Positions 3,801 through 40,059 of a stretch of DNA of 64,000 nucleotides are shown here, one piece after another. Both the position numbers and the translations under genes were made by a program. Below the pieces are notes generated by a model, which saw only the letters and a program-made list of their open reading frames with translations, was not told the origin of the DNA and did no database searches. The DNA comes from Amphiscolops sp. MND2022 (Eukaryota), in assembly GCA_964187785.1 (NCBI GenBank), contig OZ076409.1:62870001-62934000 (forward strand). The letters are read 5' to 3'. How positions within the stretch are numbered: the first letter of the stretch is position 1; each line of letters begins with the position of its first letter.

Positions 3801-6800
3801 TAATCATTACACTTGCGATAAGCAAGTGTTATGGGAAAGTGCGGGTGCTTTTTTTCCGCGCGACAACTCTCATTTCACGCGGCAAGTCGCACATTTCACG
3901 CGATCGTGGTCTAGTGGTTAAGATGCTTGCTTTTCAACCCAGGGGTTTCGTGTTCGAACCCGTAGGTATGCGCTTATTTTTTTAGGTATTCCGAAGCAGA
4001 AGATTCTCACTTTTTTCGGCACTATGAGACTTTTCGGCTCTGTGAGATTTTTTTTCGAAATTTTTAAATGTCCCCAAAGAGTCCTTTCATTTTTTTTGAT
4101 ATTTTTCAACAGAACGAATGTTAAAAATCCCAAAGGGTCCTTTTTTCAAAATTTTCGGCACTATGAGACTGTTCAAAATTCTCACTTTTTGTTTTTTTCG
4201 AAATTATTTTGAAGACTCTTTTCTCATTTGTTGTTTTTTTTCTAAAAATTTTTAACCTCGACAGTACACCGAGAAGTTGAAAAAGTGACAAAAAATAAGA
4301 AAAAATTTTTCAAAGCCTAATTTCTCCACGAATAATAGCGACAGCTCAAATCAGTTTTATGCTCCTGAAAGCCCTTTACCTAAGCTTTCAAATGGACACT
4401 AGTTAGGCTGGGAGTTGGCGCCACTTTTGTGGTGAGAACGCCACCCCGGCGGCACGGGCCCGGCTTTGCCGGGCCTTTCAAATGACACTGGAACTTTTCG
4501 CTGAAGCTTCATTAAAAAAACTTCTATATGCGGTTTCAATGGTGGCAAGTTGTGTTACTAGAGTGTGACAGTAACTTAGCAAACAGTTGCTGTGTTATTG
4601 AGAAAAAGTTAATTTTCTGAAAAGTATTTTTTTGCAAATTTTCACTTTTTTCTAGTTACCTTTTTGCCGGTGGTTCGGAAAACAAACTATATTTACACAA
4701 ATAACAACTCGCCCCAGGTAGTCCAATAGATTGTTGATTAGAAAAACAAAACTTCGTTTTCCTATGCTTTTTGCGTTTCGTAATATTTTATTGATTGTGA
4801 AAAAAATCGCTGTCTTCATTTGGGGACAAAAGCATTGTCGAGGTTAATGTCTACAAAGGGTCCAAAATTTTTCCCTCAATTTTCTGTTTTTTGCACATGA
4901 CGAAGTCAATGTGCATTGCAGTCCAGCTAAGTAAGTTTTTTTCCACTATAGTCAACTTCTTAATGAGCGCCTTTTAGATAAAAGCCAAAACCCCAGAGAG
5001 ATTCGAACCTGCAGCCTCCCGATTGCACGGCATACGTGTTGACCACTGTGCCATAGGGACGTTATTGAACAAAGTTGAACTGTTGAATATATACGCATGC
5101 GATTAAAATAATATATATACGCATATTAAAATTATCTTCGTCATGTGTTGCGAAGCACCGCTTCGCCTCTGTGTTAAAGGTTTTTCGTTGAGAAAGATGC
5201 GTTTTTTGCTGTTTTCAGTTGAGGAAGAATGGTTTTCGAGACTTATGCGTATCCTTTCGGGTATTTTTTGGCGCTGTATATTGTAAAATTCATGAAATTT
5301 TAATGTCCTTTTACCCTTGGTTCTCCTTATGATATTGCTGATTTGGTTTTCTTCAAAAGTTCGCAAGTGTTTGCGAAGCACGGCTTCGCCTCTGTGTTGT
5401 AAATGGGGTTGTTCGAAGTATTTTTCTCGGAATAGAAGTAGCATTTTTCTTGTGCAAGTTCCATGCCTATAAAGATTGAAAGTAGACTTTAAAGACCATG
5501 GCATTGTGTTTTTATAGAGCAGCACCGTCGCTTTTGGCGTGCTTCAATGTGCATGTAAAGCATGAACCATACCAGACACGCCACTGTTTGTAGCGTTTCT
5601 ACAACAAATTCATCTAAATTTGGCACTTCCACAAATGCAGTCAATGGGACTTCGTTCCTAGTAGTTCCGACTGAAGAAGACCTTTAAAAATTCATGTCTT
5701 CCAAAAATGCTTCTTCATTGCTTTTTGTACATGTACAAATGATGCTAGTTTCACGATTCATCACGAACATGATTCGTCAGAAATCTTAGAAGTGAATTTG
5801 ATCTGCAGGGATTTATGTCGTTGATTTATTAAGGTTTATATCATATTTTTGGCACCGCGACAATTCGTACAAACGACATTTCGTACAATAGCCAAAAACC
5901 CGACATTTCGTACACGGACAATTGGTACGAAAATGAAACCGGACATTTCGTACAAAAGACATTTCGTACAAAATTTAATTGAACAGAATTGCAAAATAGG
6001 TCTCAAACAAGAGAATTACTAGCTTTCAGTGCTATTACAGCCAATATGTATGGAACTTGATTCAATTAAAGGGTTAGCATATATGTTGTATGGCTCGGTC
6101 GCTTCGCTCCCTTCGCCAAGTAGCAACATTGAGGCATGGCCAAATGGCACGTCGCTCCGCTTCGCTTCGCTCCTGCATTTAGGGCACTAGGGGTATGTGA
6201 ACATAGCTGACTACGTTATAATAATTTGTATAATATAAACTGCACGAAATGTCGGGTTTCATATTGTACGAAATGTCCGGTTTCGCTTTTGTACGAAATG
6301 TCTGGTTTTGGTTTTTGCACGAGATGTCGTGTGTACGAAATGTCGTGTGTACGAATTGTCGTGCCCCCATATTTTTAATCGACGCACTTTGTGAATGTGC
6401 CCGGCTTTTAAAATGACTATAGATTTCGTTTTTTTCCGTCAGATGACAATATATCACTTTTTGTGTTAGTTTTTTGCTTCACTTTTTTTACAGACTTGAA
6501 TATAAACGGTACCGAAAAATATAAACGGCGTTGAATATAAACGGTACCGAAAATAGGCAAACTTTTTTGATTATAGATTTTACCAAAAATGTAAAAGCTA
6601 TATATGACCAAATGGTCCTCCCCTTAATTTTTTCGCATTGCGGACTTTTCGGAATGTTTCATTTCACTAAAGAGGAGATTAGGTTTTTGGATATTTTCAG
6701 TCAAGAAAATGGTGTCCCTCTTTGAATAATTTTCGAATTTTTCATTTAAACAGTCTTTTGACATATTAAAACGTCTTTGTATTTTTAACCTGAAGCGGGG

Positions 6801-9800
6801 CGTTCCCGTGTCATTTCAATTAATATCAAGAAAATGTGATTTTTGGAATTTTCATTACATGTTTTGTCTCAATAATGCTGTTGTTTTATGGATGCATTCA
6901 CGACAAAAAAAAGAACATTTTGAGGCAACCAAAAACTGGTGAACTGCTTTGTGTGAAATTAATCAGTAAAAACTTTGACCGAAGCAAATGTACAAAAAGT
7001 TGACATGATTCATTAACAGAGAAACTTTCGTAAATATTATCATTAATATTATACTAAAATTTAGAAATGTTTTTGTTTCAAAAATGTCGGATATTATTCC
7101 ATCCTTGCTGCTTTTTCGAACTCATTGAGTCTATGGGAAAATCAAGGAAAAGAAATGCTTTCTGTTTCTATTTGATATCAAACCCACCGCGGAGTTTGTT
7201 CACATATGAGTTTGTAGCGCCAATTGAACGGTACTATTTGACCTAAAAGTCCGTTACGGGCCCATTTTCCCAGATCTAATTTTGGATTTGCGTTTCTCGA
7301 TTACCTGGTTTTCAAACAAGCTTGTTTGACTAATAAGTGGCGTCAAATTTGGGTTTATTTGATGTTAAACATAGAATGTAGGTCCTGGTTTGGTCTTGGT
7401 CTCAATGCATCGCCTGTTCCTCACATGCATTTGAGGTGACTAGTAATACACATGTACATGTATCACATGATCTCCCTTCGCGTTTGCGGCCCATGTTTCT
7501 TCATGTTGCCCATGTTTTTATTCTGCTCTACTACTGTATGTACATTATATTGGGCTTATAACTATCTGCTTATTTAACGAACACTAGGTAGTGATTCCTT
7601 CGTTTCGCAATATTTGAAAATAACTATTTTATCATATAATTACCATCATATCTCTTTATACCGACCAAAATTATATGGCGTCGTTTGAATTTTTGCCGTT
7701 TTGATAGCAGCCAAGCCCGGAAATTTTCCGATAAAGCATTACCTAGCGGAAAACATCAAAACACGCATTTTACTTCCTATAACAGTTGTCCGTCATTAGA
7801 TCAATTTTTGTACGCACAATTTTTCAAAGCAGTAGTAATTTAGTTTGTCAAATAAATCAAACAAATGGTAACAATTCTGAAAAGTTTTGTTTTGGTAATA
7901 CTGAAATGAAATATGAATAGCAGCACGATTGAACTTAATTTTGGAACGGAATTGAATGAATAGTTTATATGCAGCTGTTTTTTCCACTGCAAGCTTGACT
8001 GCATCAACATTTTCGTCGCTCTTGGAAAAGATGCTTTTCATTTTGGAAGGACATGTGCATCCAGATAACACTTACGTCGATCCGGAGTTGAATATACATA
8101 CATTCTCCTGCAATTGATGTTTACTTTTGATAGAAGGTAAAGTTGTAATAAAAAGGCATTGAGACAAGATGGTAGAGGTTTCTCAATTTTCTGATAAGTG
8201 ATTTCAACATTTTTAGAGATTTGAGGAATCCGAAAACTTCAGCGTTTATTTTAGTCATCACTATATGAGATAGCGAACCGATTATTATTGCAATTTTTTG
8301 TCAATTGTTTTTTCAATCCTCTCAAAACGAGCTTCAGTAATTCTTCAAAAAGTTTTACGCGCGTCAAATAAATTAAGAGCATGGATTTGCCGAATGCCAA
8401 AACATCGATATCGATCCCAGAGAGATGCATTTTTTGTCTTATTCGATAAAACAGGAAAAATGCTTTGCATACAACAGGAACGGGTTTTCTTGTCAATTGA
8501 TCACTTGCCAAACGAATTGACTGCTACCCGGAAGGCTGTTGGCTCAAAAGACTTTTGAATACTTCCTTTCTCGATTAAAAAATTATGAACGACATTGGTT
8601 AGATTTTCGGGAATTCAAAAATTATTTCTGTAGTCAATCCAAAATGCGGAGTACTTGTTCACTTGATGATAATACATACCAATAGTTTTTGGTTCAGCTA
8701 AATATTAGAAAAACAAGGGAACGTCTAATGTCGGCGCTATATCTAAGGCTCAAAGTTTTTAAAATTGTACAAGGGGGGACTCTTTCGGCTTTTTGAAAAT
8801 CCAGTTTGTTGCAAAAAATCAAAAATTTGAAGGGGGACCGTTTGGTGACAATAACTGTGGAAAAAAGTCGCATAGTGCCGAAAAACTCAAAGGGCGGACC
8901 CTTTGCACTGACTTGGATGCGTTTCCGTTTGCCGGTCCAGTAGATTAGTAGTTCTGTAAAAAGTGTCCACTACGCATACATTGTTATCTGACGAAAAAAA
9001 ACTTGCCGCTGTAATAGTCGGGCTCATTTTGTTAAAATGCGCCGACTAATAGGTTTAAAGTTCGTCCAAAAGTTACATTATTTGCCACTTTCGATGAAAA
9101 GCTAGTGAAAAACAATTTTCTCTAAGCACCAAAAATAGAATAGGTCATGCTATTTCTAGAGTTTCCCAAATAATGCGAAGTTCCTTGAATCTACCCATCA
9201 AAAGCTTGATATAGCGGACAACTGTCGGATTTGTGTTTGACAAAAGTTTGGGATTCATTATTTCATTTGATGTTTTCCGCGGAAGATCTTTACAGCCCAC
9301 TAAAGATGTCATGCATGCAAAATGTGTTTTTATCAATGTTCCAAAGCGTGAACTTTTCCCTCTGGTTGTTGTTTTTGTTTTTGTTCACTTTTCTGTTTGA
9401 TTTTAGATTCCGAGTTTGAGAAAGCCCAGGCGTTTGTTGTCACTTTCATGGTGAGAAACAGCCTGGACCGAAAAGAGCGCGAACTTGCTGAGGATTTCGA
9501 AGCTGAGTAAGAGTCTTGCTATGAAATTGATTGCTCCCGAATGAAGGATATAAATTCACACAGCCCTGTATATTTCGCCATTAATTTTTAAGTGGACCCT
9601 AATATTAGGTTATTTTTTATTGTTAAAATTTAGGTGGGTTACATTAGGAAGGTTACATTGTTAAAAAGTTCTAATTAGTTGTTCAACCATTTAACCTTTG
9701 TAAATCTTGTAACAGTTATCGCTACACCATTCTGAAGCTGAAGTGGGATTTTAACCATTGGCAATGAATTGATTTTGCTAGAACAGAAACTAGCAGTTCT

Positions 9801-12800
9801 CAACTGGTGAATTGTCGAAGATGCCAAAGTTTCGAAACTTAGTGCATGAAATGTTTTTTTTCCAGCTCAGATTATCAAATACTTAGAATGCTTATAGTGG
9901 ACAAAACGTTTGGTGTTCAGAATTCTTCATGTTTCCTCAATTAAGACGAGTCCTTGAACGTTTGAGGAATTTAACCGCAATGGTTCAACTATATGGAATA
10001 TGTTAAAAACAGTTTAACTATTAAACTTTAAACCACTTGTTGAAAAGTTAATTTTAATTTGTTGATTAGTGTAATTAAAGGACCCAAAAACAGGGATCTT
10101 TCGAACATAATCAACAAAATTGGGCAACCCGGAAAATATCCAATTTTGTGCTGGTATTCTATACATCGTCTTCTACCAGCTGATTATACAACACTAACTC
10201 TAATTGTTTATACCAGTGCACACCAGCGGTATCTTTGGTAATTTTTAAAGGTGACGAGTAAGTTTGAATACATAGATTCTCAATCTTCTGAATTTCAAAA
10301 TAAGGTTTATATTCTGAAATTTTCATCAAGTTTATCACCACCAGGTAAGAAATTGAGAGGAATTTCCGAAATAGTTTCAGATATTGTCAATTTTAAAATC
10401 CACGAGAATTCTTCAGAAAAACGTTGAATTTATTTTTCGAGTTACTAAATTGAAAGGTTCCAAAGAGGTGGTTGCACGGCCGTCACTGATGCACAATAGT
10501 TTGTTACCAATTAAAAATATCTTACATGGCAACGGTTTTTGTACCGCTGAAAAACAGGTTTTCAATGTTTTCACCGGAGACCTGTTTGAAGAAAACTAAT
10601 TGTGGGGAGGGGTTCAAAATATAATGGATTGCCTTTCTTCTTAACTTGATGGAAACACAAGGAATAGCGTGTAATGATCAAATACATTGGCTGTTGAATG
10701 TAAAGCGCCTTGTTTCCATTTTCTCCAAAACAGGATGTATAACGTGTGGAAAATTTGGTTAAAATAGTCATTAGTGAATCAAACATTGATGCCTTTCGAA
10801 CTCCGAGTTGTTTTTACGAAAATAAACAACGGTGAAGGACAAATTTGAAAAGCAATTTTGTTCCCATGTAACGATTTTGTTGTCTGACAATTCTTGACCA
10901 CTGTGTAAATGACATAAAAATAAATTCATGCTCAGGAAGTGAATACATCATCAGTGTAATATGTTCATGTTATTTTTTTTTTTTTTTAAAAATTAAATTA
11001 CTTTGTAATCATGGTTAAGGGTATCATAAATGAAATAACTTACAACTTTAAAACATCACATCAAGCACAATGTTCATGTTAATTTTTGAATGATTTCAAA
11101 CAGCATTCCGACGTTGCTTGTTGCAGAGCAAATATGGTTGAATTAAAACAAACAAAAATCAAGTGACCATAGCACGGTCGGTAGAGTATGGGGCTCGGAA
11201 TTTGAAGGTTATCGGTTCGATTCCCGAAACCGTCAAATATTTGCTACTTCTGAAAATAGTAAAATATATTTTTCAAATATCATTCAAATAATTTGCTATC
11301 TCGAAACTTTAATTTGTTTAATTATATTTGTAAACAATATTGATCTTTTGCAAGTTGTTTCGATTTATTCACTGATGTCTTTGAATGTTTAAAACATTGC
11401 TAACAAAAAACTCTTTGCAAACGGACTGTATTCACCCGAAGGCTTACAGTTTAACAAGGTGGCCATAGAGAGGCACGAATAAATTTTCAAAACTGTGAAC
11501 TTTGACTTATCTGCGGCATTCTCTTTCTGCGTGTACTTGTTTCTTCACTCCAACGAATATTTTGTTCTCGTTCACGATAAACTCGATTGGATTGAATTCC
11601 CACTCAGTAAAGTCATTATTCATTCAAAATGCTTTTCCTGGCTTATCTACCATATGTGACCTCCAAATGAACGACTGCTTTTAACGACCTTCCGCATGCG
11701 ACGTGCGATGAGGAATTCAACAAATTCTATCATTGGCCATTTTTCACGAAGTATTGAACTGTGAACGAATGCAATGTTGTACACATGAGTTCGTGGACTT
11801 CCAGCTCCAACGAAGAGTGACCAGAAGAACCCCCCGTAGTGAACACGAATGTTCCCAACGAAACCCAGAGATACACCCGAAGAACCCCATGACTGTGAGT
11901 TACTTGAAAGAACGAAGATTCTTGAAAACATCTTGAAAATTTTTTGAAAACTTTGATACCCCGAAAGAAGTGTTATTGTTCTAATCTTCGAGATAGCAAA
12001 GTTTCTTGAAATATTAACCAAAACATGCCGCTTTTAGAAGTAAATTAGAAGTAAATCGTGAAAGCAAATAAACTAATAAGCGCAGTGAAAAAAAATTCTT
12101 AAAACTGGTTGTAAAGTTTGTGCCTTGTATTGCAGGAAGCTCTCGAAAATTCGTTGACCCAGACCCATCTCTCTACATTTCGCCAAAAAAGTTGCTTAGA
12201 AACATACATTTTCCTGAGCTTTTTTGTTAAGAAACAATGTGAGTGCATTTTAATGGTGTTTATTGTAGCAGCTAGTTCCTTGCACCTTGCAATAGAAACG
12301 TTAACTCCCGATGAAAAAGAACGTTATGAAGGCAAAATTGTCTCTATCCCGGGCCTAAGTCTTAATCCTAACACGAAAAATCCCAAGAAGATTGTTCAAA
12401 ATTTACTTTCGAAAGATCTGAAAGATAAAAAAGACATTGTGATTTGGCATGATGTTTTGAACAATAGTATTTCGAAACATGATAGCAACAATTTCCGTGC
12501 GTTATCAGTGCTAGATCTAATTAAAACATTGAAAAGTCTTCAAGACAAGCTTTGTGCTCTGGTGTATTGCCAACGTTACCGCACCCCGCACATTTTCGAA
12601 GAATTGAAAGTTTTGCAAACTGATCATAATATCAAAGTGTTCAGTATCGTCAAAGATTTTATATCCGTGAAAAAACAAAAGGATCCCGAGATTCTTAAAC
12701 AATTCAAGGCGTTGCATCAGAGCCCAGAGCTTGAACTGAAGAATTTGGATTTTGTTCTTCGTAAAGAGAATGATCTCAGTAAAATAACTGATAAAAGCCG

Positions 12801-15800
12801 ACCCAAACGGCCAAGCAAGCGTGCCCGGAACGCTGCTAAGAGAGCCGCTGCCTCCTTTTAGACTCAGTTGGCTACCCCCCCGCTTCTTCCAGCTGTCGAG
12901 ACAGTGTCCGAACTTCACTGATCGGTTGAAGTTTCTTCAGCTCTTCCTCCTTCTTTCAGAGTTGTGTCCAGTCTTGACTGACTGGTTGATACTCTGAAAG
13001 ATCGTTTCGTCCCTCAGCCGCACCACCGTCAACTGAGACCGCGTTTCGTCGACGCGACTTTGAGTTTATCGTGTTCCGTCCTCGTAGTCTGTGACTACTT
13101 TTAACTTAAAACAAAAAAAATCGCCAGTTTCTTTGTAGAAGCACTGTACAAACACAGTGTTGTCACCGATAAACACCGTTCTTCTACCGAACTTTTTCTT
13201 GAACTGTGTCCAAACTTAATTGTTTGGTTGACGTCTGAAAAAGTACAAACGCCCACCGATCCTCAAATTTAGCTACGGTCATGTCTGACCCCGTTAACGA
13301 AAAGGTGCAAAAGTTGTATGACAGTCGCGCGAAAGCCGAAGCCGACTTGAACAGATATCAAAAGGACGTGACAGAAGCAGTAAACAATGCCGACAGACGC
13401 GTCCGCGTCGAACGGTTGGTCACTTCTTGCGAAGAGGCTATGACAAAAGCTTTCGCTAAGAACGAACAGCTACTCGAGCTTGCCAAGAAAACCAACGACC
13501 CGGCAACTGTCACAGCGGACTTAGAAAAATGGTTGAACGTCACGAGCATACAAAATGATGAAATTTTGAGAAGCGCAAGGGAATATATCGACCAATGTCC
13601 CAAAACAGATAATTCTTCACAAACTTCAGTCAAAGCTACCACCGTGAAGACCAAGTCTAGCAAAAATTCAAGCAGCAAAGCGTCGAAAACTTCAAGTCAG
13701 CGCCAACGAGACTTGCTTATTGCCAAACACAAGCGAGAAGAAGTTGAACGGCAAAACGAAGCTGCTTTACGATTAGCTAAGCAAAAACAAGAGCTCGAGC
13801 TTGAACAACTGCAAGAAGAGAACCGCAAACGACTTGCAGAAGCGCATCTAGTTGAACTTGAACTTCAGGAAGACCCATCTGAAGCTAACGAAGATGCTCA
13901 TGAGATTCTTTCGCGGTTGAGCAGAACAACAGATGCTAGCGAAACGCGCCGAGTTAGTGACTGGGTTAACAACTCGCCAATCGTTACCACGACTCAACAT
14001 GAGACAGTAACAGCAGTGACTGCAAGTCTAGCGACTTCTGTCGCAAATACTACCGTTTCCATCCCATCTCACCCACCTCCGGTTAATGTCTCTCAGCCGA
14101 CTTTCGCACCAGGTGATCACAACGAAACAAACGTGGCAGTACAACTACCAACAACTACCGTTCCATCAATGAGTTTAAATCACACTCCTGCGGTACAAAC
14201 TCAGACTCCTCCATTTACAGCGCAAAACTTGGGGAATATCGGACCTTCAACATCAGCTGTCATAGTACAACAACAAGTTCAACCGACAATCATCCCGACC
14301 CAAACTGGAAGTTTCAATGCGCAAGTTTTACCGCCACAAACGACAGCACGGATGCCCACGTTCACAATGCCGGTGAATCACATCCTCCCAAACTTGTCCG
14401 CATGGACCTTCCCGAACCCGACCGTTACCACCGCACCAATTGTAACAACAATTCCGCCCCCGACACAGCCGACAGCACCTACTTTCATGCCGCTCGCTCA
14501 CGCGCCAACCTATGCCGCTCCGACCGTACCCGTTACCGCTGGTGGAACTGTTTATTATGTACCCCCAGCAACCGTTACCACACCAATTGTGTACAGTACA
14601 GCTGCACAACCGACGACTTCCCTTAGTCCAACAGCCGCTACATTTGTGCCAACAGGAACTACGCCAATCCCGCAACCAAGTACAACTGGGTTTTCTATTC
14701 AAGATCTTGCTCTTTTGTTAGCTTCAACCAAGAAAGATCATTTGCCCGAGTGGAAGTTAGCACAATACAGCGGAGATCCGCTACAATGGCACGAATGGTT
14801 CGGCCAATTCAAAAGCGCGATCGATGCGGCACCACTAACAGACGATGTTAAGCTAACATACCTGAAAACCCTCGTAACAGGCAAAGCCAAAACTGCAATC
14901 TCTGAGTTCGCCTATTGTGGAGCGATGTATAGAGACGCTCTGAAGACTTTAGAACAGAAATTCGGTCAACCCCAGACTGTAGTAACCGCGTACCTGGACA
15001 AGTTATCGAACTTCCCACCTGTAAAGATGCACAACAGTGAGAGCATCATCAGTTACTCAGCGACCATCTGTTCTTTAGTCGGAGTCTTCCGGTCACTGAA
15101 TTACCTTCAAGATCTATCCAGTGCATCACTGCTGGGACAAGCTGTGCAAAAGCTTCCACCGAATATGAAAGAAGCATGGTCAATGCACACGGTGAAGCGG
15201 ACATTGGACAGGCCAACACTGATCGATTTCAACGATTGGCTCAAAGATAAGGCGGAAGCGCATGAGCGCATGAAGTCTGCCTCAACCAAGCCGAAAACCG
15301 AAGACAGTACTACTACTGCAACAAAGACCAAAACTGTCTCCAAAGTTTTTGCATCGACAGCCTCGTCTAGCCAACAAAGTTCGAACTCGAAGAGTAAAGT
15401 GGAACAACCGCCAAACTGTGTCGCCTGTAAAGACAAACACCCGTTGTGGAGATGTCCAGTTTTCAGAAAAAAGACACCCACGGAGAGAGCAAGAATTGTG
15501 GCAGACAATAAGCTCTGCTTTTCATGCTTCAACCAAAATCACACGTTTCGCCAGTGCCCGCAACCCCGCAAGTGTACGAAAGATGGATGCGGGAGTTCAC
15601 ACAACACTTTCTTGCACGGAGCCGACAGAATATTTGCCAAGAAAGCCACTAATGTGAACAAGGACAAAACTGAAACATCTGGTTGTATTGGGACGTCAAT
15701 GAACAACGAAAGATCAAACGAGAGCTCAGGCATGCCCTCCTTTGCCGATGTTAAAGGCCTCTTACAAGTAACGGAAGTTGAACTTCACGCGAATGGCAAA

Positions 15801-18800
15801 AGTGAAAAAGTCTTAGCACTGTGTGATTCTGCCTGTAGCCATTCCTGGATCTCAGCAAATCTGGCAACGAAGTTGAACGTTCATGGCACCCCGACCAAGC
15901 TTACTGTCCATGGCATAAATTCCAACCAAGTCGTAGACACGCAACTGGTGGAGCTTAAGTTGACACCCGTTCATTCGGGTGGCTCTTGCTCTCCCTTTGT
16001 TGTTAAACCGTACATCAGGGAAGACCTCAAAGTCGGAACTGACACCATCGAAGTCGAACTTTTGAAAACAAAGTACCCCCATTTGCAACCAATCTCTTTG
16101 AAAAGGTACAGCTACGCCGATGTTGAAATGATCCTAGGTCAGGATGTTTTCCACTCGATCCGCCCGCTGGAGTATTTCGATTCCGACCGCAAAAATGCTC
16201 CAGTTGCCGTTCGCTTACCGTTGGGTTGGGTTTTGAGTGGACCGCTCCCCTCGTCCTCAGGTCTCTATTCAACTTGTTTTAAAGCAGTCGCTTGTAACAA
16301 AGAATTGGACTCCGAACTTGCCGACCAACTCCGAAGCTGGTACGATATTGAATCGTATGGAGCGTACAAACAAGTAGATTCGCGTTCCGCTGCCGACGCG
16401 AGAGCGCTGAAAGTACTTGGAGAAACAACTTACCACGATGGTAACCGATACCATGTGGGAATGTTGTGGACCGAAGCCGACAGTAGTTTGCCGAATAACT
16501 ACTTTTCCGCGCTCGTGCAGCTAAAATCATTGGAACGTCGCCTCGACAAAGACCCTGAATTGAAACAACTTTATGCCAAAACAATTCACGACGACTTCAA
16601 CAAAGGGTACATCACCAAAGTTGACAAAAGCGACTGTTTCAAAGTAGACCAACCCCGCGAGTGGTACCTGCCACACCATCCCGTAGTGCACCCGCATAAA
16701 CCCGGCAAAGTTCGCAGAGTATTGAATGGCGCAGCAAAGTTCCAGGGCCAATCTTTGAACAACGCTTTGTTAACCGGACCGGACTTGCTACAAAGTTTGA
16801 TACACATACTGATCCGCTTTCGTCAACACAAGTACGCCGTCTCTGCCGATATCGAAGGTATGTTTCTTCAAGTCGGAGTCATTCCAAAAGATCAACCTTC
16901 ACTTCGTTTTCTGTGGCGGGAAGACCCAGCTGCAGAAGTCGCTGTGTATCAGTACATCCGGCACATCTTTGGATCGAAGGACTCACCAACATGTGCCAAC
17001 TACGCACTGAAGCGCACTGGTAGCGATAACCAAGACACTTTCCCTGAAGCAGCGAAAAGCGTTCATCGCAATTTTTACATGGATGACTACTTGGAATCAA
17101 GCCCTACGGTCGAAGAGGCCAGTAACAAAGCAAAGGACTTGGTCGCACTGCTTGCAAAAGGTGGTTTCAATCTAACCAAGTTTGTCTCCAACATTGCCCA
17201 CCTTCCACCCGATCTGCAACAAAGCGGTGAACTAGCACCGACCGACGAGAAGGTGATTCCGAAACCAGACGAGTCCTCACATGTCTTGGGACTTAAATGG
17301 AATCATGCCTGTGATACCCTCGTAGTAAGTCGGGGAACGAGCCCCGCTACGAACAAGAAACTTACTCAACGAGTGGTGCTGAGCGTAGTTTCAGCTGTCT
17401 ACGATCCCATTGGACTCGTTGCTCCGTTTACCGTCCAAGCAAGACTGTTGTTGAAAGACATCTGGAGATTAAGTGGTCAACAGTGGGATGACGATCTGCC
17501 AGACGAAATCGTAACAAAGTTCAACGAATGGAGCAAGGAGCTGCCAACTTTGAGCGAAATTCAAATCCCACGGAGTTATTTCGAACAGCGAGTCGAAACC
17601 TTGGAGCTTCATATGTTCGGTGACAGCTCTCAAGATGTCTTCAGCGCCGTCGCCTTTCTACGAGGAAAAGTTGCCACCGCGACTGGTTACACCACAGAGT
17701 TAGCCTTCGTCTTCGGGAAAGCCAGAGTGGCACCCATGAAGGCACTTACAATCCCGAAGCTCGAACTGCAAGCATCGTTGCTTGCCGCACGACTCCGAAA
17801 GGAAATCGAAAATGCTCTAACGGTCAGAGTTGACAACACTTTCATGTGGACGGACAGTACCACGGTCCTTCAGTGGCTCCATTCATTAGAGAAGCAACCA
17901 GTGTTTGTCACTAACCGTGTTGCCGAAATCCTGGAATTAACAACGGTGGATGAATGGAATTATGTCAAATCAAGTGACAACCCCGCTGATGCAGGAACGC
18001 GTGGTCTTTCAGCCAACTCACTTCGTGACAGTCCCTGGCTCAAAGGTCCTTCATTCTTGCGGACACACGACTGGCCGTTCGAACCACCAAAAGACGTTGA
18101 GATCAGATTGAAAGCGAAAAAGTCGGATCTTCCCAGTTCCGATCAAGAAACTTCGGAATTTTTGACTGCTTTAAGTGCAACTGTGATCGGCATCGCGACA
18201 ACTTTCGAGTGGCAGAAGTACAGCTCGTACGAGAAACTTCTGCGCGTTGTTGCTTACATCTTGCGCCTACTACCAAAAAACGAAGGTTACCGATCCGACT
18301 CTGGCTTAGTAACTGACCCGAATGAAATGCGAAATGCTGAAATGAGACTTTTCTATCTCATCCAACAAGAGTCATTTCCCGTCGAACTGAAGTGCTTGCT
18401 GAAACAATCCCCCGTCAGCAACTCTTCCAAACTCTCCCAATTCTCTCCTTTCATTGGGCCTCAAGGCCTACTGCGAGCAACCGGTCGGACCAAACAACTA
18501 ACAGTTTCCAACTTCGACGCAAAACACCCTATTTTACTGGACAGCCGTCACCCCGCCGTACGCTTGTACTTAGAGCAGCTCCATGAAACGCATTGCCATC
18601 AGGGTGTCGACTACATGAGGGCGTTGGTGCAGCAACAGTTCGCCATCGTCAAGCTTAGAACCGCCCTGAGGTCAATTGTCTCCAAATGTGTCACTTGCCG
18701 CAAACGTCGAGCGGAAACTCTTAACCCGATAATGTCCGACCTTCCTCGGGAAAGACTGGCATTCAAAGAGCGTCCATTCACGAAAAACGGGATCGACTAT

Positions 18801-21800
18801 TTTGGTCCGTTTTACGTAGCTGTGAAGAGATCAACTGAAAAACGATGGGGATTCCTATTCACTTGCTTAACAACCAGAGCTGTCCACTTTGAAGTTGTTC
18901 CGTCAATGGACACTAGTAGCTGTGTTATGGGGATCGAAAGATTTGCCGCCCGTCGGGGCGTCCCATCTGTTTTGTGGTCTGACAACGGAACCAATTTTAT
19001 CGCCAGTGAAAAGGAGTTGCTACAAAACGTGTCAGCGTGGAATCAACAGACCCTGTCAGAAGCTTTGGTCAAAAAACGGATCCACTGGAAGTTCAATCCC
19101 CCCAGTGCTCCTCACCACGGAGGTGTCTGGGAACGAATTGTCAGGAGCTTCAAACACGTTTTTTATGCAATTCTTGGAAACCGTCGCCTAACGGACGAGA
19201 TACTAACAACTACCTTTTGTCTGGTAGAGCAGAGTCTCAATTCCCGTCCACTAGTACCCGTTAGCGCCGACGCTACGGATTTGGACGCGTTGACACCTAA
19301 CCACTTCCTGTTGGGAACCGCGGGTTCCACAATGCCATCTCACCAAAGAGCCGACGTAGACCACAAAAAACGCTACGCACGTGCACAAGCGTACTCAGAT
19401 GCAATTTGGGACCGTTGGTTAAGAGATTACGTTCCGTCGCTTAACCGCCGTTCAAAGTGGTCAACCCAACCAGATCGAGATCTCAAGACCGGAGACCTTG
19501 TCTGGATTGTGGAAACTACGAGTCCACGAGGACATTTCCCACTTGCACGTGTGGTTAAATTGAACTACGGTACTGACGCAATCGCTCGTTCGGCGGAACT
19601 GAAAACCGCAACAGGAAACCTCGTTCGACCCGTTGTCAAACTCGCACCCGTTCTCCCGTCCCCCGATTCCCCCAATCTTACTTAATCTGTACTAAGCTCT
19701 CGTTGTTCTCGCTTGTAATCGTATCTAATATGAATAAAATGTAACATGTACTTCGAAAATCCATGTAAACAGTTTTTCAAAAAAATTTTTTTTTGTTCAG
19801 TTTAACGTTCACATTGTTTTACATTCACATCTTCTTGGGCCCGGAGGATGTTGCAGAGCAAATATGGTTGAATTAAAACAAACAAAAATCAAGTGACCAT
19901 AGCACGGTCGGTAGAGTATGGGGCTCGGAATTTGAAGGTTATCGGTTCGATTCCCGAAACCGTCAAATATTTGCTACTTCTGAAAATAGTAAAATATATT
20001 TTTCAAATATCATTCAAATAATTTGCTATCTCGAAACTTTAATTTGTTTAATTATATTTGTAAACAATATTGATCTTTTGCAAGTTGTTTCGATTTATTC
20101 ACTGATGTCTTTGAATGTTTAAAACATTGCTAACAAAAAACTCTTTGCAAACGGACTGTATTCACCCGAAGGCTTACAGTTTAACATTGCTAATTTCTTT
20201 TTCTAAAGTTTTTGTTTCAAAGTTGCCGAAATTGCCTATCTTCAAAATGTTAAATGTTTGACTTCAAGTATGCTCTAAGATACTAATAAGAAGCTAATTC
20301 AGTTTTCAGAGTTTTTAAGAAACTACTATTTTATCTCAAATATTTTTTTAGAAATGATAGATAGACTTGGGATTGTTCTATTTTGATTTTGTTGATGAGT
20401 GTGTTTCGAAAGGTATCTGAAAACAGTGCAGAAGTTCATTGCGGCCAACCCACACCTGTCGATGGCGTACCAGGCACAGAGGTCGATCCAGGACGAGATA
20501 GAGCGCGAGTCGATGGGAGATGTGAAGACAGTCATTTGCAGCTACCTCATCATGTTCGGCTACATTACCCTCTGTCTGGGCAAGGTCGGCGGCATCGGTT
20601 GGAGGTCACTGGTCGATGTCAAGGTCAGGTCATCTTAGTTTGAATGAGCTATCCATGGTATTGTCACATGAATCACAAAAACTGAGTTTGCATCTTGAAG
20701 TGCGCTACGTTCAAGCGGCAATTGAATATGCTGTTGTCAATCGCATGTTATTTCCGGGTCCATGGATCTTCGCGTTTATCGATCACTGTTGATAATTTGT
20801 TTATTTGTTTCCACGTTTTGCTTGTTGCAAATAATGAGGTCGATTGAAAATAGTTTTTAATTTCGAAAAAAATGTCCTTTTTTGGAAACGGCAATAAATC
20901 AGTGGTGTTACTGCTGACTTCATTTCCTCGGATAACGCCAATTCATTAGGTATCATTGAGTTGTATATGTTTTCAAATAATATGTAGTTAGTTGGTTGTT
21001 TTTTAGGTCACTCTGGGAGTGGGTGGTGTGGCCATAGTGCTGTGCAGTGTGGCTTGTTCGATAGGAGTGTTTGGGTTCATTGGAGTACCCGCCACTCTCA
21101 TCATCATGGAGGTCGTGCCCTTCCTCGTGCTCGCAGTTGGAGTGGACAACATATTCATACTCGTTCAATACTTTCAGGTAAGTTGGAAAGCACAACACAT
21201 GCACGATACACAAGCGTTTTTGAACTTGAAAAACATTGAACGAACGTGGCTGAAAGCATCATCCATTGTTTTAAAAATATGAGAGGAAACACTATATTCA
21301 ATACTATCAGAAATAGTTACCGTTAAAAACCCAAAAATATATTTTAGCTTTTCTGCCCACGTGTTTATTGGCAACTACTTCGTGTTTAGAAGCTTCTTCT
21401 ATGCTACGAGTTCATTCCGAGCAAAAATGTCACAAACTGAAAAAAAAGTTTTCTTTGTATTTGTAATGGAAATATAATGTTTATACCAAGCTGCGATTAC
21501 CTGTACTGAATTTAGTCGGTGCTTTTTGAAAAAAGTGCAAGACTATAACTGGCTAGTTTTCAGTCGACGCTTTTACTAAGTGAAAGTGCCTTTTTGTGAG
21601 TGCACATTGACGGAATGGTCTTCTTTTATCCAAAAATATTCCCCTTTGATTATTTTACAATTTTATTCGAATAAAAAAACTACATGAAGGGGTCCGTGTT
21701 AGTTGATTACTTGATGCCTCAATTAAGGAACGCTCCTATTATTTTCATTGCTGTTAGAGCAATCCCGCCTTGTAAGATTTATTGGGTTCTTAATTCTATA

Positions 21801-24800
21801 ATAGGTACTACTAGTTCTTTGTTCTAAATTTTTCTCATTTCTAAATTATTCGATTGGAAGTGTTCGTTGTAGAGATATCGTCCCGAGAACAAGAACGAAT
21901 GTCTGGAGGTGCAGGTTGCCACTGTATTCAGCCGGGTGGCACCCTCGATGCTGCTGAGTAGCTGTGCGGAGACACTGGCCTTCTTCCTGGGTGCCATGAC
22001 TCCTATGCCCGCAGTCAGGACCTTCTCCCTCTACGCAGGCATGGCTGTCGCCTTCGACTTCCTCTTCCAGATCACATGCTTTGTCGGCCTTCTCACTCTA
22101 GATGCTAAACGACAGAGGGTATCATATTGCTTACATACTTAATTTCATTTCGGTCATTATTACAATCTCCTAATGTTGATTGCCCTGTTGCATTCAATGA
22201 TCTTTAGAAATAAAGAAAATTCTCAACTTTTTTCTTCTAAACTTTATCACTTCAAAAGGAGTGAGTTTGAAACGTCATTATCACTTACTCTGCTTCAGTC
22301 AAACGCTACTTTATTGTTGGGTGATTTGTGATTTTTTTTTTACAAAATTTGAAAATTACGATTGCTCCGAGTTTTTTAAAAGTGAAAGATATGCTTCTCA
22401 AATGTTCAGACATGCTCAGATTATATTCTGGGAAATCCAGCTGACATAAAAATACATATATAGCTTTTATAGCTACTCCGGAATGTTATTTTGAAGGATG
22501 CTCGCTTGGACGTGGTGTGTTGTGTGCCTGTGGATCATTGCGATAAGCCCCTACAACAGGAGGGCATGGTGTACTCGCTCTTCCGCAACTACTACTCGCC
22601 CATCCTCTTCAGTGACGTCATTCGGCCTCTGGTGATGGTCACCTTCGTCGGCTGGTTTCTCGCCTGTCTCTGTATGATCCCCCACATTCCCATCGGACTC
22701 GACCAGAGTCTCACCCTTCCCCAAGTGAGTGTTGCTAATGATAGTGGTAATGTAATGTCTCACGGAACCTTGCTTGACCGAGGTGTTGGTAAGGGCCCCG
22801 AGTAAGTGTCTTGAAAGTTCTTGCGTTTCGAGAGATTTCAAGTCAAGTTTTGCACTTCGGTTTGAGTGATTAATTGAACCATCAGCATCGAACGCCTTTG
22901 AGGAATTATGCAAGATATCAAAGTGATAATGTGAGCGATTTTTGTTGAAAGTTTCACAACCTATCTAAAATTTCTACAAATCTTTTTACTTTTTTTTCAG
23001 GATTCTTACATGCGGGACTACTTTACAGCAATATCAGAGGACCTCAATGTGGGTTCGCCCGTTTACTTTGTGATCAAGGACCCCTACGACTACGAAGACC
23101 CACAGCAGAGAAGTTTGCTGTGTGGATCTGCTGGCTGTGATGGCAATTCGCTTGTGCAGCAGATCAGTCTGGCTGCCTCCTCCAAGCATGTAACCAAAAT
23201 AGCCAAAATGCCAAACTCCTGGATCGACGACTTCATCGACTGGAGTAACCCTGTTACTAAATGCTGCAGGTGCGAATGTCCTTTGAAAAAATTGTCACTG
23301 TGCGCTCTATAAAACGAAATGTGACTATTATAGTGGCATTTCTTTGTTTTTTCTCCTTTTAAAATCCGCTCGAAGTGATGAAATACGATAAATGCTGTGT
23401 ATGAAGATTCCACAACACGCTTAAGATATAAAGGGGTCCAAGGTCTTTTAAAGTGCCCTCCCTTTCTTATTTTGACATTTTCGTTCTAATCACAAAACTA
23501 TGAGGGTTTCGGCACTGCGACTTTTTCTGAAAATTTATTCGTTCCACTAAAGGGTTCTCGCTTTGGTTTTTTGATGTTTACAGATAAGAAAAGCACGAAG
23601 GGCCCTCCCTTCTCATTTTTTGTGGCAGTGAGATTTTGAGAACTGTTTCAAAAAAGTTCCTAAGCGACCTGAAGTACTTCTCGCTTTTTAGCCCTTCAGA
23701 GGGGCGCCGATTTTTTCCGTTCTCGGTTCATTTGTATCATTCTTGATTCGTTATTATTTCATTATTTTTTGTGGATATCTGTTGAAAGAATGAGATGAGT
23801 CTCAAGACAATTGTTTTGTTCAGATAGCGTTTCTTCAAATTCAGTATTGTAGCCGATTTTAAATTTTTCGTACTCGTTTGTGCTTTAAAATGGCTTTGAC
23901 CTTTCTAGTGTCATTTTGAGTTCAAATAGCAAAATGGAATGTTTATAGGTTCTACGAAGATGACCCTGAGAGGTTCTGCAATGCCTCTGTGAAGTCGACC
24001 AACTGCGAAGATTGCGTAACTGGGTCGGAGAAGCTGGGTGGAGCGCAATTTGATCGTCTTCTGCCCTTCTTCTTATCCGACGTTCCTTCCATCGACTGTC
24101 CTAAGGGGTAAATTGACTTTCCTAAGCGGAATCATTTCATTTTCAGTGACCCCTCTCAGCTGGATTTAGGCACTTCCTTAATTTAATCTGAGAGATTATC
24201 ACGATAGAGACTTTAACGGTTCATGTGATCTTCGTTTACGTCAATAGAACTTTAATCTCTGTTGTAAGGAAATGTTAATCAAGACATACTTTTTTGAAAT
24301 TGATAATTCATTTGTATTATTTCTGCGATAACAGGTATAATAGAGAAATCTGAATTATTCAACTTTTTTCAGTTCGAGTTTCGTCGTGATTCCGAGTATC
24401 TACTAAAAAAATCAGATATTTTGTTCGGCAGTGAGTATAAGCGTGAGATTTAAATTTCTCAAGCTGCCGACAATTTATCGTTTTTCGTGCGATGAAACGA
24501 GCGAGTGGTAATTATGCATTCGTACGTTGAATTCATTGAGATGAAGCGAGCGAATGTTGGCGGTGTAAACTGGTAGAGTGATTAATTGTGCGCTATATAA
24601 ATGATTAAGATATGCTTCTATTATTGAACATGAAAGCCTAAAAGCAGAAATAATACTGTGCCCCGCAGGGGCCTATTTTATAACATACGGAATCCTCGTT
24701 TAAACTTGTGGCATTTACCGTTTAATAATTTCAAAGTTAATTATTTTTGCTCACTTGCTAAGCTATTTCCCTGTCCCTTTTCTGCTTGCTTGCGTGCAGA

Positions 24801-27800
24801 TTTGAATGTCATTTTAAAGATTGTGATGAGTAAAGACTTTGGTGAAAGGTATATTTTGTGGAAAAAATTTCAAAATCCGCCGAATTTGCAACAAGTTTTC
24901 TTCTTAACCTTAAGTTGGCCAGGAAAAATCTTGTTGCATCCAAAAATCAGGTGCTTCAACTTTAAACCGCGATATCTCCTGAACTATACAAGTCCGACAA
25001 ACGATTTATACAGCGTTCGAAAGAGGAGCATTGGGGCTTTCAAATCAATTTTTAAACTGCTGGGCTTGGGGCCCGCTAGCGCGGGCCCCTTGCGCGCAAA
25101 GTTTTTTGCGCGAAGTTCTCCGCTGGCGTGCGGCTTCGCCACACTGGCTCCGAACTTTGCGCCAAAACTTTGCACGCGTCGTGTCTCTGCTTGCTTTTCA
25201 ACATGTTTCAAAACATGCCGGGGACGCTTTGACCCAATGTTGATACCAGTGGGATAAAAGGGGCACAAACCAAAACTGGGAAAACGGAAAATCTGCACTT
25301 ATTTTTCTTTTGATTTTTTTGCGTCATTTTCTGGGTTTTGGAGACATCACGTCAATTTTCCGTGAAAAGGCGCCGAATGCTATGCAATATTGTCTGAAAC
25401 TCTTATTAAAGGTTTTGCTTTACCATACAATCAGCTGGTGCGTTAAGAATTTGCAGAAACAAAATGTGCCAAATTTGGCACATTGGCCAAGTTAAGGTTA
25501 ACGCGACGAAAATGAAAAGCTCAAAACTTGGCCTTAATGATGCAAAAACTCATTTCAGGACTTAAAACAACTGAAAAAGATAGCCTGAGCGCAATTTGAA
25601 AAATTTAGTATTTTTTTGTTAACCTTAAGTTGGCCAGGAAAAATCTTGTTGCATCCAAAAATCAGGTGCTTCAACTTTAAACCGCGATATCTCCTGAACT
25701 ATACAAGTCCGACAAACGATTTATACAGCGTTCGAAAGAGGAGCATTGGGGCTTTCAAATCAATTTTTAAACTGCTGGGCTTGGGGCCCGCTAGCGCGGG
25801 CCCCTTGCGCGCAAAGTTTTTTGCGCGAAGTTCTCCGCTGGCGTGCGGCTTCGCCACACTGGCTCCGAACTTTGCGCCAAAACTTTGCACGCGTCGTGTC
25901 TCTGCTTGCTTTTCAACATGTTTCAAAACATGCCGGGGACGCTTTGACCCAATGTTGATACCAGTGGGATAAAAGGGGCACAAACGAAAACTGGGAAAAC
26001 GGAAAATCTGCACTTATTTTTCTTTTGATTTTTTTGCGTCATTTTCTGGGTTTTGGAGACATCACGTCAATTTTCCGTGAAAAGGCGCCGAATGCTATGC
26101 AATATTGTCTGAAACTCTTATTAAAGGTTTTGCTTTACCATACAATCAGCTGGTGCGTTAAGAATTTGCAGAAACAAAATGTGCCAAATTTGGCACATTG
26201 GCCAAGTTAAGGTTAAAGTTCGTAATGTTTCCTATGATTAAAAGTTTATTATTTTCCGACCCCACATTTTATAAATGGGGGAGGAAAATCATGATCTGTG
26301 ACGCGTTTTTTTCCAAATTTTGCCAAATCTCCACAATCTCCACCTTTTGATTACTTGACTATTTTATATAGCTATTAGTAACTAAAATAGTCAAGTAACT
26401 AAAATAGCATACAGCGGGAATAATATCTAAAGTCAAAAAAGGGAATAAGATCTGAAGGGAATAAGATCTAAAATTTCAGGGCGGGAATAAGATATAAAAT
26501 CACTAAATTTTAGATCTTATTCTTTAGATCCTATTCCCCCCTCCCAAAATAGCTATGGCTCAGTTGGTGAAGGCGAACAGGGGGGCGGAAAATATCCCGG
26601 TGCTTAGCGGGCGTCTTGTAAATCATCGAATGATATTTTGTTTGTTTCAGAGGAAAAGCTGCTTATTCAAGTTCTGTATCTTTTGCAAATGGTGCTGCTA
26701 TTTCTCGCGCTGAGGGAGGAGAAAACCAAAATATGAATGGGAAGAAAATCTCTTCAAGCTACTTCATGACATATCACGTTGCCCTTAGGACTTCTGACGA
26801 TTTCACCGAGGCTTTAATCCAATCTCGTGCTTTGGCTGCTGAAATATCCAAAACCATCAACGCTCAAGTCTACCCTTATTCGTTAGTATAGCTATTTTTT
26901 GGTGAAAATATAATTTGCTGAATTATTTAAAATGTTTTGGACCATGTTTCTTATTCCCCATGGGGGATGTGAAACAAGGTTCAAATACCATTATGGCGAC
27001 ATTGGCTGAGATAAGAAATGTGGTCCACTAGCCAATTCGTTCGTGCGCTCATACTCCGAGACTAAATATTTTACCTAATGACAGTAGTTTTCACGTTCAC
27101 TGGACATGGTCGAGTTGGTTAGTTCCGTACTTTGCTATACGGTAAACCACCAGAGGTGTGATCGCTAACCATTTTATAGCTAATCGCTAACATCGCTAAT
27201 GGCCCGATTTCATCGCTATCGCTACAACAAAATGGGTTCGCTAACGCTATCGCTAATTAAAAAACTGATTTTCAAGATATTCATTTAAATTTCAGAAAGT
27301 TTTGAACTTTTTTTGAGAAAAGTCTAGTTCGCCTTGGGCAATATTTTTCAGCAGAATCATATTTTCAATCGTTCTCACTTTAACGGCATTGCATTCTGTT
27401 TAGCGAATGAAAATGTTCGCTAACGCCCTAATTTGTCGCTAACTATCGCTATCGCTAATTAATGCTGAATTGTCACTAACGCTATCGCTCTCGCTGTCAC
27501 ACCTCTGTAAACCACCGATTCGAACCTTGCTCTAAGCACGAACTTTTTGAACAGGCTCGTCAAATGCAATTTTCTGTATCTGCGGGCAAGGTGGAGCCTA
27601 TTTTGGTTCTCATTTGCTCTCAGCATCTATTTCTTGGGTTATAGCCCAAGATTCGGTTGCTTTCCTTTAAATTCAATAAAAATTGAAAATGTTCCTGAGA
27701 AATGTGTATGGAATTGAAAGGTTAACTTCCTGAAACTTTTACAGATTTTGATTTTATCCCGAAACGTGATATGGAAATATACTGATAGATGAACTTTTTG

Positions 27801-36933: not shown

Positions 36934-37436
36934 TGTCGGCGCTTTTCTAGTGGAAAGTGCCCGACACTTACAGTGGCTAGTTTTTTTTTTTCGTCAGACT
37001 ACAATCTCACTCTGATTGGGCCACTTTTCTTACAATCGAAACTACTAAAACTACTAGCATAAGGCCAAGTCCGGTCAGCGGAAATTAGTGCAAAAGGTCC
37101 CCCCTTTCATATTTTACTATTTTACCGTAGCCTACAAAACCGGACGAGACTAAAGGGTCCCCCTTTCAATTTTTTTTCGGCATTGTGCGACTTTTTTTCA
37201 AAAATTTTTTAATGTATCAAAAGAGTCCCTTTCGAGTTTTTTGATATTTTGCAACAGAATATATGTTGATGAAGCCCAAAGGGTCCCCCCTTTTACATTT
37301 TTCGGCACTATGCGACATTTTCTGAAAGAAAAAATATTCGAAAATTTTTTTGAAAAAAAATTTTTTTGAAAAAAAAAATTTTTGCGCTTCTTGAGCCTTA
37401 GATATAGCGCCGACTTTAGACGTTCCCGTCTTGTTT
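36934..37436 (+). mobile_element. HINE-like repeat, family A copy
   Basis: 5' gtcggcgc; 3' gcgccgact + hairpin agacg-ttcc-cgtct + tgttt; T-rich flanks; no TSD. Confidence 0.8.
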
Positions 37437-37600
37437 GAGTGAAACGTGACTTGATAGTTTGTTCGGCCGATATCATACCAGTATTGTCGAAACCAGATTC
37501 ATTAATTTTCAAAACGTGAAAATTTTCAATTAATCGAAATTTAATTTACTTCATAGAATAAGGACTTCTCCCATCTTGCGGGCTGTTTTTCCTTGATTTT

Positions 37601-38184: not shown

Positions 38185-38399
38185 TTGGTTTTCGGTAATA
38201 GCCGCTGATGAAATTTCTCGAAGAGAAACCCGACTGTATCAGTGGCTTCTTAAAGACCAGCGAACTGACACTTCTATAAATAATTCTATAATTATAAGCT
38301 GCTACCACTTAGCTGTAACTTAGTAACATCTAACTGCCACTTGGCCAAGAGGTTAACGCGGATTTTCTGATGTCGTGGAAGCAGAAAGACGTGGGTGCG

Positions 38400-40012: not shown

Positions 40013-40059
40013 GGGGAGATGACGGTGGGTTGAAATCGCATTGCATATCGGCAGTTTGC
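40013..40059 (+). repeat. 47-bp dispersed repeat (second copy 41720-41766)
   Basis: ggggagatgacggtgggttgaaatcgcattgcatatcggcagtttgc; two mismatches between copies. Confidence 0.8.

Follow-up and report, generated by a model that had tools for sequence, protein, structure and literature searches.

Introduction

In metazoans, retrotransposons with long terminal repeats (LTR) are described as taking up pieces of host messenger RNA (mRNA) through template switches guided by microsimilarity, a process termed LTR-mediated retroposition (PMC5131818). In the same account, Tan et al. 2016 report several parent genes per chimera, a preferred switch site in BLASTOPIA and further rounds of transposition, and describe one case, in the Pao element BATUMI, with a piece of a 5' untranslated region (UTR). 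In the parts of a second source drawn on here (PMC2774666), accessory genes are given for other LTR groups and none for BEL/Pao. The stretch analysed in the present work, referred to as the window, comprises 64,000 nucleotides from Amphiscolops sp. MND2022 (contig OZ076409.1, positions 62,870,001 to 62,934,000, forward strand) and contains a BEL/Pao LTR retrotransposon at 11119-20186. Quite probably, this element combines one accessory gene, placed ahead of gag-pol and named ORF0 (ORF, open reading frame), with a non-coding, exchangeable leader whose host-derived sequence entered by capture.

Results and Discussion

Identity of the element and variability of its leader

The element is a BEL/Pao retrotransposon that was inserted very recently. 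It has TG...CA LTRs, a short target-site duplication (TSD), a primer-binding site (PBS) for a tRNA and a single gag-pol of the order PR-RT-RH-IN with the signature domains of the group. The gag-pol is open, both LTRs are identical, and a Pfam search places in it DUF1759 (E-value 1.1e-14), protease, reverse transcriptase (RT), Peptidase_A17 (1.6e-41), integrase and DUF5641 (1.8e-21). LTRs, TSD, PBS and gag-pol domains agree, and confirm the identity proposed in an earlier note on this DNA, made from the sequence alone. An env gene is absent from the 163 nt between gag-pol and the 3' LTR.

The region 11457-13280 was searched against the 1.07-Gb assembly, and 40 of the 650 first-look candidates were scored. 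Nearly all of them (37/40) align only from the ORF0 start codon onward. The leader that extends from the PBS to ORF0 (0.8-1.1 kb) falls into 15 types among the 30 loci fetched, which align poorly or not at all, especially in their 5' halves. In 27 of the 30 loci the whole pre-ORF0 leader of the window copy is replaced by other sequence, and only the sisters L002 and L003 have the window's leader type. Further downstream, the types average 79-86% identity to one another over the first 120 nt of ORF0 and 89-99% beyond, the body being near-identical from about 120 nt into ORF0. The exchangeable slot measures 413-669 nt, and the 3' half of the leader (12001-12252) is only partly alignable between types. 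A GTGAGT/GTTAGT motif, donor-like by sequence, is present in 14 of the 15 types.

LTR variants and leader types assort separately: eight leader types are found with one and the same LTR end, the sisters L001 and L002 have different LTRs, and the same applies to L020 and L022. This separate assortment, together with the homogeneous body, suggests that old leader lineages ride on a recombined recent body.

Two further loci show unusual arrangements at this end of the element. In L030, a partial second LTR end and PBS stand right after the PBS, as expected from aberrant strand transfer. L147 (G000:C1106:244101) carries LTR, PBS and the start of an L020-type leader followed by other sequence, with no ORF0 within 1.5 kb, and is a possible non-autonomous derivative.

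Host origin of the slot content

Host sources were searched for 9 of the 15 leader types, and each of the nine matches non-element host loci over part of its length, at 73-91% identity. ORF0, gag, PBS and LTR were not found near the source loci, the LTR check covering, for some of them, the matches listed. The sequence of the window's slot matches a single non-element locus at 81-82% (G000:C11:32087001-32087418), to which the sister L003 aligns over 396 nt at 82%. This locus precedes, in the same orientation, a zf-C4 nuclear-receptor-like gene. It has a TATA-like box about 45 nt upstream and a GTATGT donor downstream, at about C11:32087572; 5.1 kb further an acceptor leads into the zf-C4 nuclear-receptor-like frame. 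The source is therefore predicted to be the first, non-coding exon of the zf-C4 gene.

Some leaders are mosaics of several host loci. In L013, three blocks of the leader derive from sequence upstream of an FtsJ methyltransferase frame, and a 2.2-kb GTAAGT...TTTTCAG intron is removed exactly between the second and the third. They are followed by a stop-broken part of an exon with LDLa repeats, which comes from another contig. The piece in L029 comes from upstream of a TCF/LEF exon and its 3' end lies at a donor; the pieces in L008 and L020 likewise end at donor-like GT sites. Three of the four identified sources lie upstream of a coding start and two of them are transcription-factor genes. As a separate observation, L008 joins a donor-ending piece of one contig to an acceptor-starting piece of another (L043, C3:15082887; L042, C1:80407361), which may be read as trans-splicing, later rearrangement, misassembly or chance.

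It might be argued that the matching loci are not sources at all and represent remnants of the element that were scattered long ago. Part of the matches do belong to older element copies with pieces in common (L066, L069, L074, L149, L150 and L154), and these were not counted as sources. The remaining loci are devoid of ORF0, gag, LTR and PBS, and the intron and the open LDLa and FtsJ frames are found in the host and not in the element, which makes such an origin highly improbable. The 5' half of the leader is host sequence, likely captured from host RNAs during reverse transcription. The earlier note had singled out the leader as unusual, and this holds in the sense that it is variable and host-derived.

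Proposed route of capture

The captured pieces mostly begin only a few bases from the tRNA-Ile PBS, which suggests that capture takes place at plus-strand transfer. The host match starts at most 3 nt from the end of the 18-nt PBS in four of the nine searched types, and at most about 14 nt from it in six. Directly after the PBS, NCGA is present in 5 of the 15 representatives and CGA in a sixth; NCGA is the complement of tRNA positions 58-55. In the window copy, whose PBS has A instead of T as first base, ACGA (11475-11478) follows the PBS directly, which fits copying of the tRNA continued into the T-loop. In human immunodeficiency virus 1 (HIV-1), plus-strand synthesis is reported to stop before 1-methyladenosine 58 (m1A58) and secondarily before U54 (PMC8599865). 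The two stops correspond to 18 and 22 nt copied, respectively. The host source of the window's piece reads TCGAA at the PBS junction, and the junction similarity in L004 and L013 is 2 nt, in sequences that are 9-27% diverged.

The tRNA-Ile(AAT) that matches the PBS is located in a tandem array on contig C3. The array is large (G000:C3:50.90-50.96 Mb and beyond, L089-L098), its units repeat every 215 nt or so, and the primer pattern has 487 exact matches genome-wide.

According to the proposed mechanism, RT would leave the element RNA in the leader and copy a co-packaged host RNA, sometimes several in turn. The resulting minus strand would lack a copy of the PBS. Subsequently, the plus-strand strong-stop DNA, consisting of the LTR and 18 or 22 nt of tRNA-Ile, would anneal to the host complementary DNA through a few matching bases, and the host piece would consequently come to lie directly behind the PBS. 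The product would stay coding-competent, because the PBS, the 14-nt motif described below and the spacer hairpins all lie outside the slot. Each capture would then found a leader lineage, and later recombination of co-packaged genomes would swap the LTRs and gag-pol. On this evidence capture at plus-strand transfer is favoured, with some reserve.

Several observations weigh against this reading. Three of the four internal gaps relative to the host are not GT-AG introns (the first gap in L013, of 140 nt, that of 254 nt in L004 and that of about 146 nt in L014), one piece (L027/L065) is antisense to a host reading frame, and L020, L027 and L029 have no host match in their initial 100-210 nt. The host-source searches cover 9 of the 15 leader types, and the transcription start, the exon structure of the sources and splicing are predictions from sequence. 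The 9-27% divergence of the captured pieces from their sources blurs any microhomology at the junctions, and NCGA may be inherited instead of made anew at each capture.

The main rival is that host sequence entered at the DNA level, by repair synthesis or gene conversion, or by ordinary minus-strand switches, and that its position beside the PBS reflects only a tolerated insertion. The three non-intron gaps, the antisense piece and the three types with unmatched sequence before the first host piece would suit such an entry; moreover, if copies damaged in ORF0, the pairing motif or gag-pol are selected against, the active ones would be left with insertions in the leader only. On the other hand, one GT-AG intron was removed exactly, pieces end at donor sites, the old 5' leader was replaced instead of interrupted, and four of nine types start within 3 nt of the PBS end despite a slot of 413-669 nt. 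Entry by these other routes is therefore possible and on the whole unlikely.

A second rival regards the slot as adaptive: host 5' UTRs would provide tissue-specific translation or localisation, a shield against small-RNA silencing, or small RNAs acting on the source genes. The coexistence of 15 types in young copies while the body is homogenised, the slot length kept within 413-669 nt, and the position of three of four sources upstream of a coding start, two of them in transcription-factor genes, could be taken in this sense. However, numerous indels and a divergence of 9-27% separate the pieces from their sources, which would weaken pairing with host mRNA. The window copy was inserted recently in spite of a 62-nt loss from its piece, the large common body would stay a small-RNA target, and the sample of genes is tiny. 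An adaptive role is accordingly improbable. The same low probability applies to the stronger proposal that the leader is a dedicated, selected slot. In this proposal the family would keep taking up, at plus-strand transfer, 5' ends of host mRNAs, some of them from developmental regulators, and selection would hold the many types because every borrowed UTR brings its own expression niche, protection from small-RNA silencing or small RNAs directed at the source gene; if true, this would be a retrotransposon with a variable host-mimic module. The slot content is most likely neutral cargo.

ORF0, the accessory gene

ORF0 is under purifying selection and is the sole accessory gene of the element. 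The ratio of nonsynonymous to synonymous substitution (dN/dS), pooled from pairwise comparisons of 15 representatives and given without P values since the copies are related and recombining, is 0.24 in ORF0, 0.16 over the first 150 codons of gag, and 0.70, 0.81 and 1.06 in the three spacer frames. ORF0 is open over at least 195 aa in 19 of the 30 loci, and the first 500 or so gag codons are open in 22.

The ORF0 protein is predicted to adopt the alpha/beta fold of the SGNH/GDSL hydrolases. The model built from 62 diverse sequences has a predicted local distance difference test score (pLDDT) of 96.8 and a predicted template modelling score (pTM) of 0.89. Its best structural match in the VIA comparison, in which SGNH/GDSL-type entries occupy the top rows, is 7ddy (Z 11.7, root-mean-square deviation 3.6, 159 residues aligned), and Foldseek retrieves 3p94 (E 4.8e-4, template modelling score 0.56). 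An earlier model from a shallow alignment gave one confident model out of five and no Foldseek match at E <= 0.001. The SGNH residues are kept in the family, namely S8 (60/62), G34 (56/62), N71 (57/62) and H155 (61/62), and were assigned to blocks I, II, III and V by motif position, not by active-site superposition. Fold prediction and purifying selection thus bear out the SGNH-like frame that the earlier note had seen ahead of gag-pol.

Some results weigh on the other side. The Asp of the D-x-x-H motif is missing, the five commonest letters at position 152 being K, R, Q, A and S; ORF0 is broken in 11 of the 30 loci; and no Pfam GDSL family is among the 25 families listed for the 62 ORF0 members at E <= 0.1. 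The ORF0 profile finds nothing among PDB sequences at E <= 10. Among Atlas look-alikes of ORF0 at 0.92, Lipase_GDSL_2 occurs in 21% and 46% of the members, which is a lead only. One search gave 296 relatives of ORF0 out of 776 candidates; among representatives of 50% clusters there were 783, and neither names nor Pfam families are attached to them.

The ORF0 family is also found at the 5' end of other BEL lineages and of long interspersed nuclear elements (LINEs) with apurinic endonuclease and reverse transcriptase (APE-RT) in the same genome, as seen in a genome search with 3314 first-look candidates, of which 150 were scored. Relatives (L099-L142) stand about 110-430 nt after the LTR in five other BEL lineages, and others precede LINE ORF1 and APE-RT, one of them with a PHD finger. 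By their ORFs, 14 such loci divide into nine BEL-like and five LINE-like, of which Pfam confirms five and four, respectively. The esterase of ZfL2-1 is described as binding acidic phospholipids (PMC3905857). By analogy, the best guess for ORF0 is likewise a membrane- or lipid-binding esterase, with a likely role in the assembly or transport of particles.

Probable signals kept constant around the slot

The motif TTCGAGATAGCAAA (11987-12000), the only one present in every leader type, is a 14-nt complement of LTR positions 11292-11305. Complementarity of at least 11 bp between LTR and leader is present in 28 of the 30 loci, and only one of 200 shuffles reached 14. In L053 both sides of the pair are changed, and the distant relatives L055, L069 and L134 pair LTR and leader through different sequences. 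Less favourable to the pairing are L019 and L026, where it extends over only 9 bp, and five other distant loci, L050, L052, L066, L074 and L140, in which no such pair is among the top helices. A candidate reading of TTCGAGATAG as the splice acceptor of a 100-nt leader intron was given up: L014 and L019 lack the AG, and changes in the motif covary with those in the LTR.

The 419-nt spacer between ORF0 and gag-pol contains almost no start codons, with one ATG in 6266 nt over 15 related copies against about 81 expected. It folds better than 100 of 100 shuffles (z -3.5), and in its hairpins 36 of 44 inner positions over 11 distinct stems are Watson-Crick (shuffle mean 25.7, maximum 35, in a shuffle that ignores the relatedness of the copies). 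The hairpins are probable packaging or translation signals. TTTAG ahead of the gag ATG is not conserved, and a Rfam scan of 11100-13300 returned a single weak match below the gathering score, which was discarded. The gag-pol stands behind ORF0 and the ATG-free spacer, and for this reason probably needs non-canonical translation; it would probably be reached by reinitiation or internal entry across the spacer. In this respect the non-canonical expression anticipated by the earlier note seems right for gag-pol; the recoded accessory module to which it had been attributed is not supported by the results below.

Short frames of the leader

The earlier note had proposed five overlapping protein-like frames as a multi-ORF accessory cassette in need of non-canonical expression, taken here as TGA recoding or frameshifting. 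All five are present: frame 1 (11502-11684, 60 codons), frame 2 (11629-12048, with eight internal TGA and a TAG at its end), frame 3 (12072-12230, 52 codons), frame 4, which is ORF0, and frame 5 (12788-13087, with three internal TGA). Only frame 4 exceeds chance. In 2000 dinucleotide shuffles of 11457-12252, the TAA/TAG-free run of the leader has P = 0.16, eight TGA within one run P = 0.07, the longest stop-free frame P = 0.28 and the presence of four frames of at least 50 codons P = 0.05, which is borderline.

Comparison of copies leads to the same result. Relative to the sisters L002 and L003, the window copy has a private 62-nt deletion at about 11653, spanned by frames 1 and 2, and a 1-nt deletion at 11739 within frame 2. 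Since both sisters carry these extra nucleotides, frames 1 and 2 exist in their present form in the window copy only. In L002 a 1-nt shift affects frame 3. The host-derived segment (81-82% to G000:C11:32087030-32087418) contains frame 1 together with the first half of frame 2, and host source and leader differ there by indels of 1, 2 and 7 nt. Beyond ORF0, frame 5 has a dN/dS of 0.81, and 17 of the 20 distinct spacer indels are not multiples of three. No peptide common to leader types and no antisense leader ORF common to different types were found, and the short frames of leader and spacer have no noteworthy Pfam match. The outcome that the earlier note had named as refuting its proposal, codon-level conservation in none of these frames but the SGNH ORF, is what the copies show.

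For such a cassette speak the existence of the frames, the eight TGA in one TAA/TAG-free run, the borderline number of longer frames and the three TGA of frame 5, which are present in 30 of 30 loci; the latter are kept because the entire spacer is conserved. Against it stand the P values of 0.07-0.28, the differences in frames 1-3 between 99%-identical sisters, and the absence of shared peptides and of codon-level constraint already described. The multi-ORF cassette is scarcely tenable, and the TGA recoding or selenoprotein reading of the leader frames was rejected as being at chance level and unconserved. The 11-bp duplication (12035-12056) cited in the earlier note exists. It does not indicate decay of the window copy, because both sisters carry it, with one mismatch in L002. 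What remains in front of gag-pol is ORF0 and a non-coding leader.

Features of the element and its surroundings

The features of the element are collected in Table 1.

Table 1. Positions of the element's features in the window
Feature	Position	Strand	Remarks
Target-site duplication	11114..11118; second copy 20187-20191	+	TTGCT, 5 bp
5' LTR	11119..11456	+	338 nt, TG...CA, same sequence as 3' LTR
LTR site complementary to the leader motif	11292..11305; 3' LTR equivalent 20022-20035	+	
Primer-binding site (PBS)	11457..11474	+	18 nt, complement of the 3' end of host tRNA-Ile(AAT)
Host-derived segment	11476..11817	+	81-82% to one non-element locus
C-rich stretch	11818..11900	+	3' end is the GTGAGT/GTTAGT motif (11895-11900)
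TTCGAGATAGCAAA	11987..12000	+	motif kept across all leader types; predicted long-range RNA pairing with the LTR
3' half of the variable leader	12001..12252	+	includes the 11-bp duplication 12035-12056
ORF0	12253..12861	+	202 aa, predicted SGNH/GDSL hydrolase fold, basic C-terminal tail
Conserved non-coding spacer	12862..13280	+	ATG-free, three hairpin repeats (6-bp stem, hexaloop)
Spacer hairpins	12904-12929, 12964-12989, 13206-13231	+	
gag-pol	13281..19685	+	one open ORF, 2134 aa, ATG at 13281
3' LTR	19849..20186	+	338 nt

Within the LTR, 11170-11224 (and its counterpart in the 3' LTR) contains tRNA-like A-box and B-box sequences and resembles the head of a short interspersed nuclear element; it is a possible RNA polymerase III promoter within the LTR. 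ARAGORN called no tRNA in the window.

Exons of a sterol-sensing, NPC1/Patched-like gene follow right after the element on the same strand (20399-22142 and 30603-31013), and the element probably sits within an intron of this gene. The window also contains a decayed LTR-type element with zinc knuckles (60085-60507) and protease- and RT-like frames at 59000-64000; integrase-like remnants at 43467-43928 and about 39800-40050 with a weak tblastn match to gag-pol; a 47-nt tandem array at 50229-50556; a 99% duplication with 715-nt spacing at 24896-25910; and a dispersed family of short inverted repeats (3993-8900, 28400, 36900-38700, 41060 and 46800).

Comparison with known systems

As in LTR-mediated retroposition as described in PMC5131818, host sequence lies here between parts of one LTR element, is dispersed in several copies and shows intron loss, with one exact GT-AG junction (L013). 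In the cases described there, the retrocopy replaces parts of the ORFs and the product is non-autonomous, whereas the pieces reported here occupy a non-coding slot behind the PBS, ORF0 and gag-pol are open in the window, and the slot was refilled in at least 9, and probably 15, lineages. Searches of open-access full text turned up neither a non-coding slot behind the PBS that is refilled again and again in coding-competent elements nor a BEL/Pao element with a 5' SGNH ORF. The element offers a natural record in which a coding-competent LTR element has captured host RNA many times. The breakpoints are countable, and the reverse-transcription step at which cellular RNA enters can therefore be tested from genome data alone.

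The SGNH esterases of the non-LTR ORF1 proteins (CR1, RTEX, Penelope; ZfL2-1) resemble ORF0 in their position upstream of pol, in their basic surface or tail and in their scattering over unrelated retroelements, as far as they are presented in PMC3905857. ORF0 differs from them in being a stand-alone protein of 202 aa without a coiled coil in the model and without the block-V Asp, and in preceding a BEL gag-pol as well as LINE ORF1; the likeness is one of fold. LTR elements of bdelloid rotifers likewise have a GDSL/SGNH accessory ORF in common with a very different type of retroelement of the same genome (PMC5408684). In that description, however, the GDSL frame is a 3' ORF3 of other LTR lineages (Vesta), whereas ORF0 is located 5' of gag in BEL/Pao elements and is shared with APE-RT LINEs. 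The present data add a 5' SGNH-fold ORF family, without a Pfam model, that is common to BEL/Pao elements and LINEs of one genome. They also point to an annotation hazard, since accessory genes or host paralogues may be wrongly called where such leaders contain only captured exons or frames that are open by chance.

The CYC5/CYC3 cyclization of Ty1, in the description available in PMC7969010, also involves a short motif downstream of the PBS that is complementary to the LTR, and the leader-LTR complementarity is here kept through sequence change. In contrast to Ty1, a distance of 480-780 nt, which includes the variable slot, separates the motif from the PBS, and its pairing is predicted only. 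The LTR-pairing motif and the hairpins are likely cis-acting RNA signals of BEL/Pao, because they survive the swapping of the sequence between them.

With BEL/Pao elements (Belpaoviridae) in general, the element shares LTRs, a 5-bp TSD, a tRNA PBS and a single gag-pol with DUF1759, Peptidase_A17 and DUF5641; it differs in its extra 5' ORF and its 1.8-kb pre-gag region with captured host sequence, and it has no env. Host-mRNA capture by LTR elements and SGNH ORFs in LINEs and rotifer LTR elements are already known, and the swappable leader is a variant among them.

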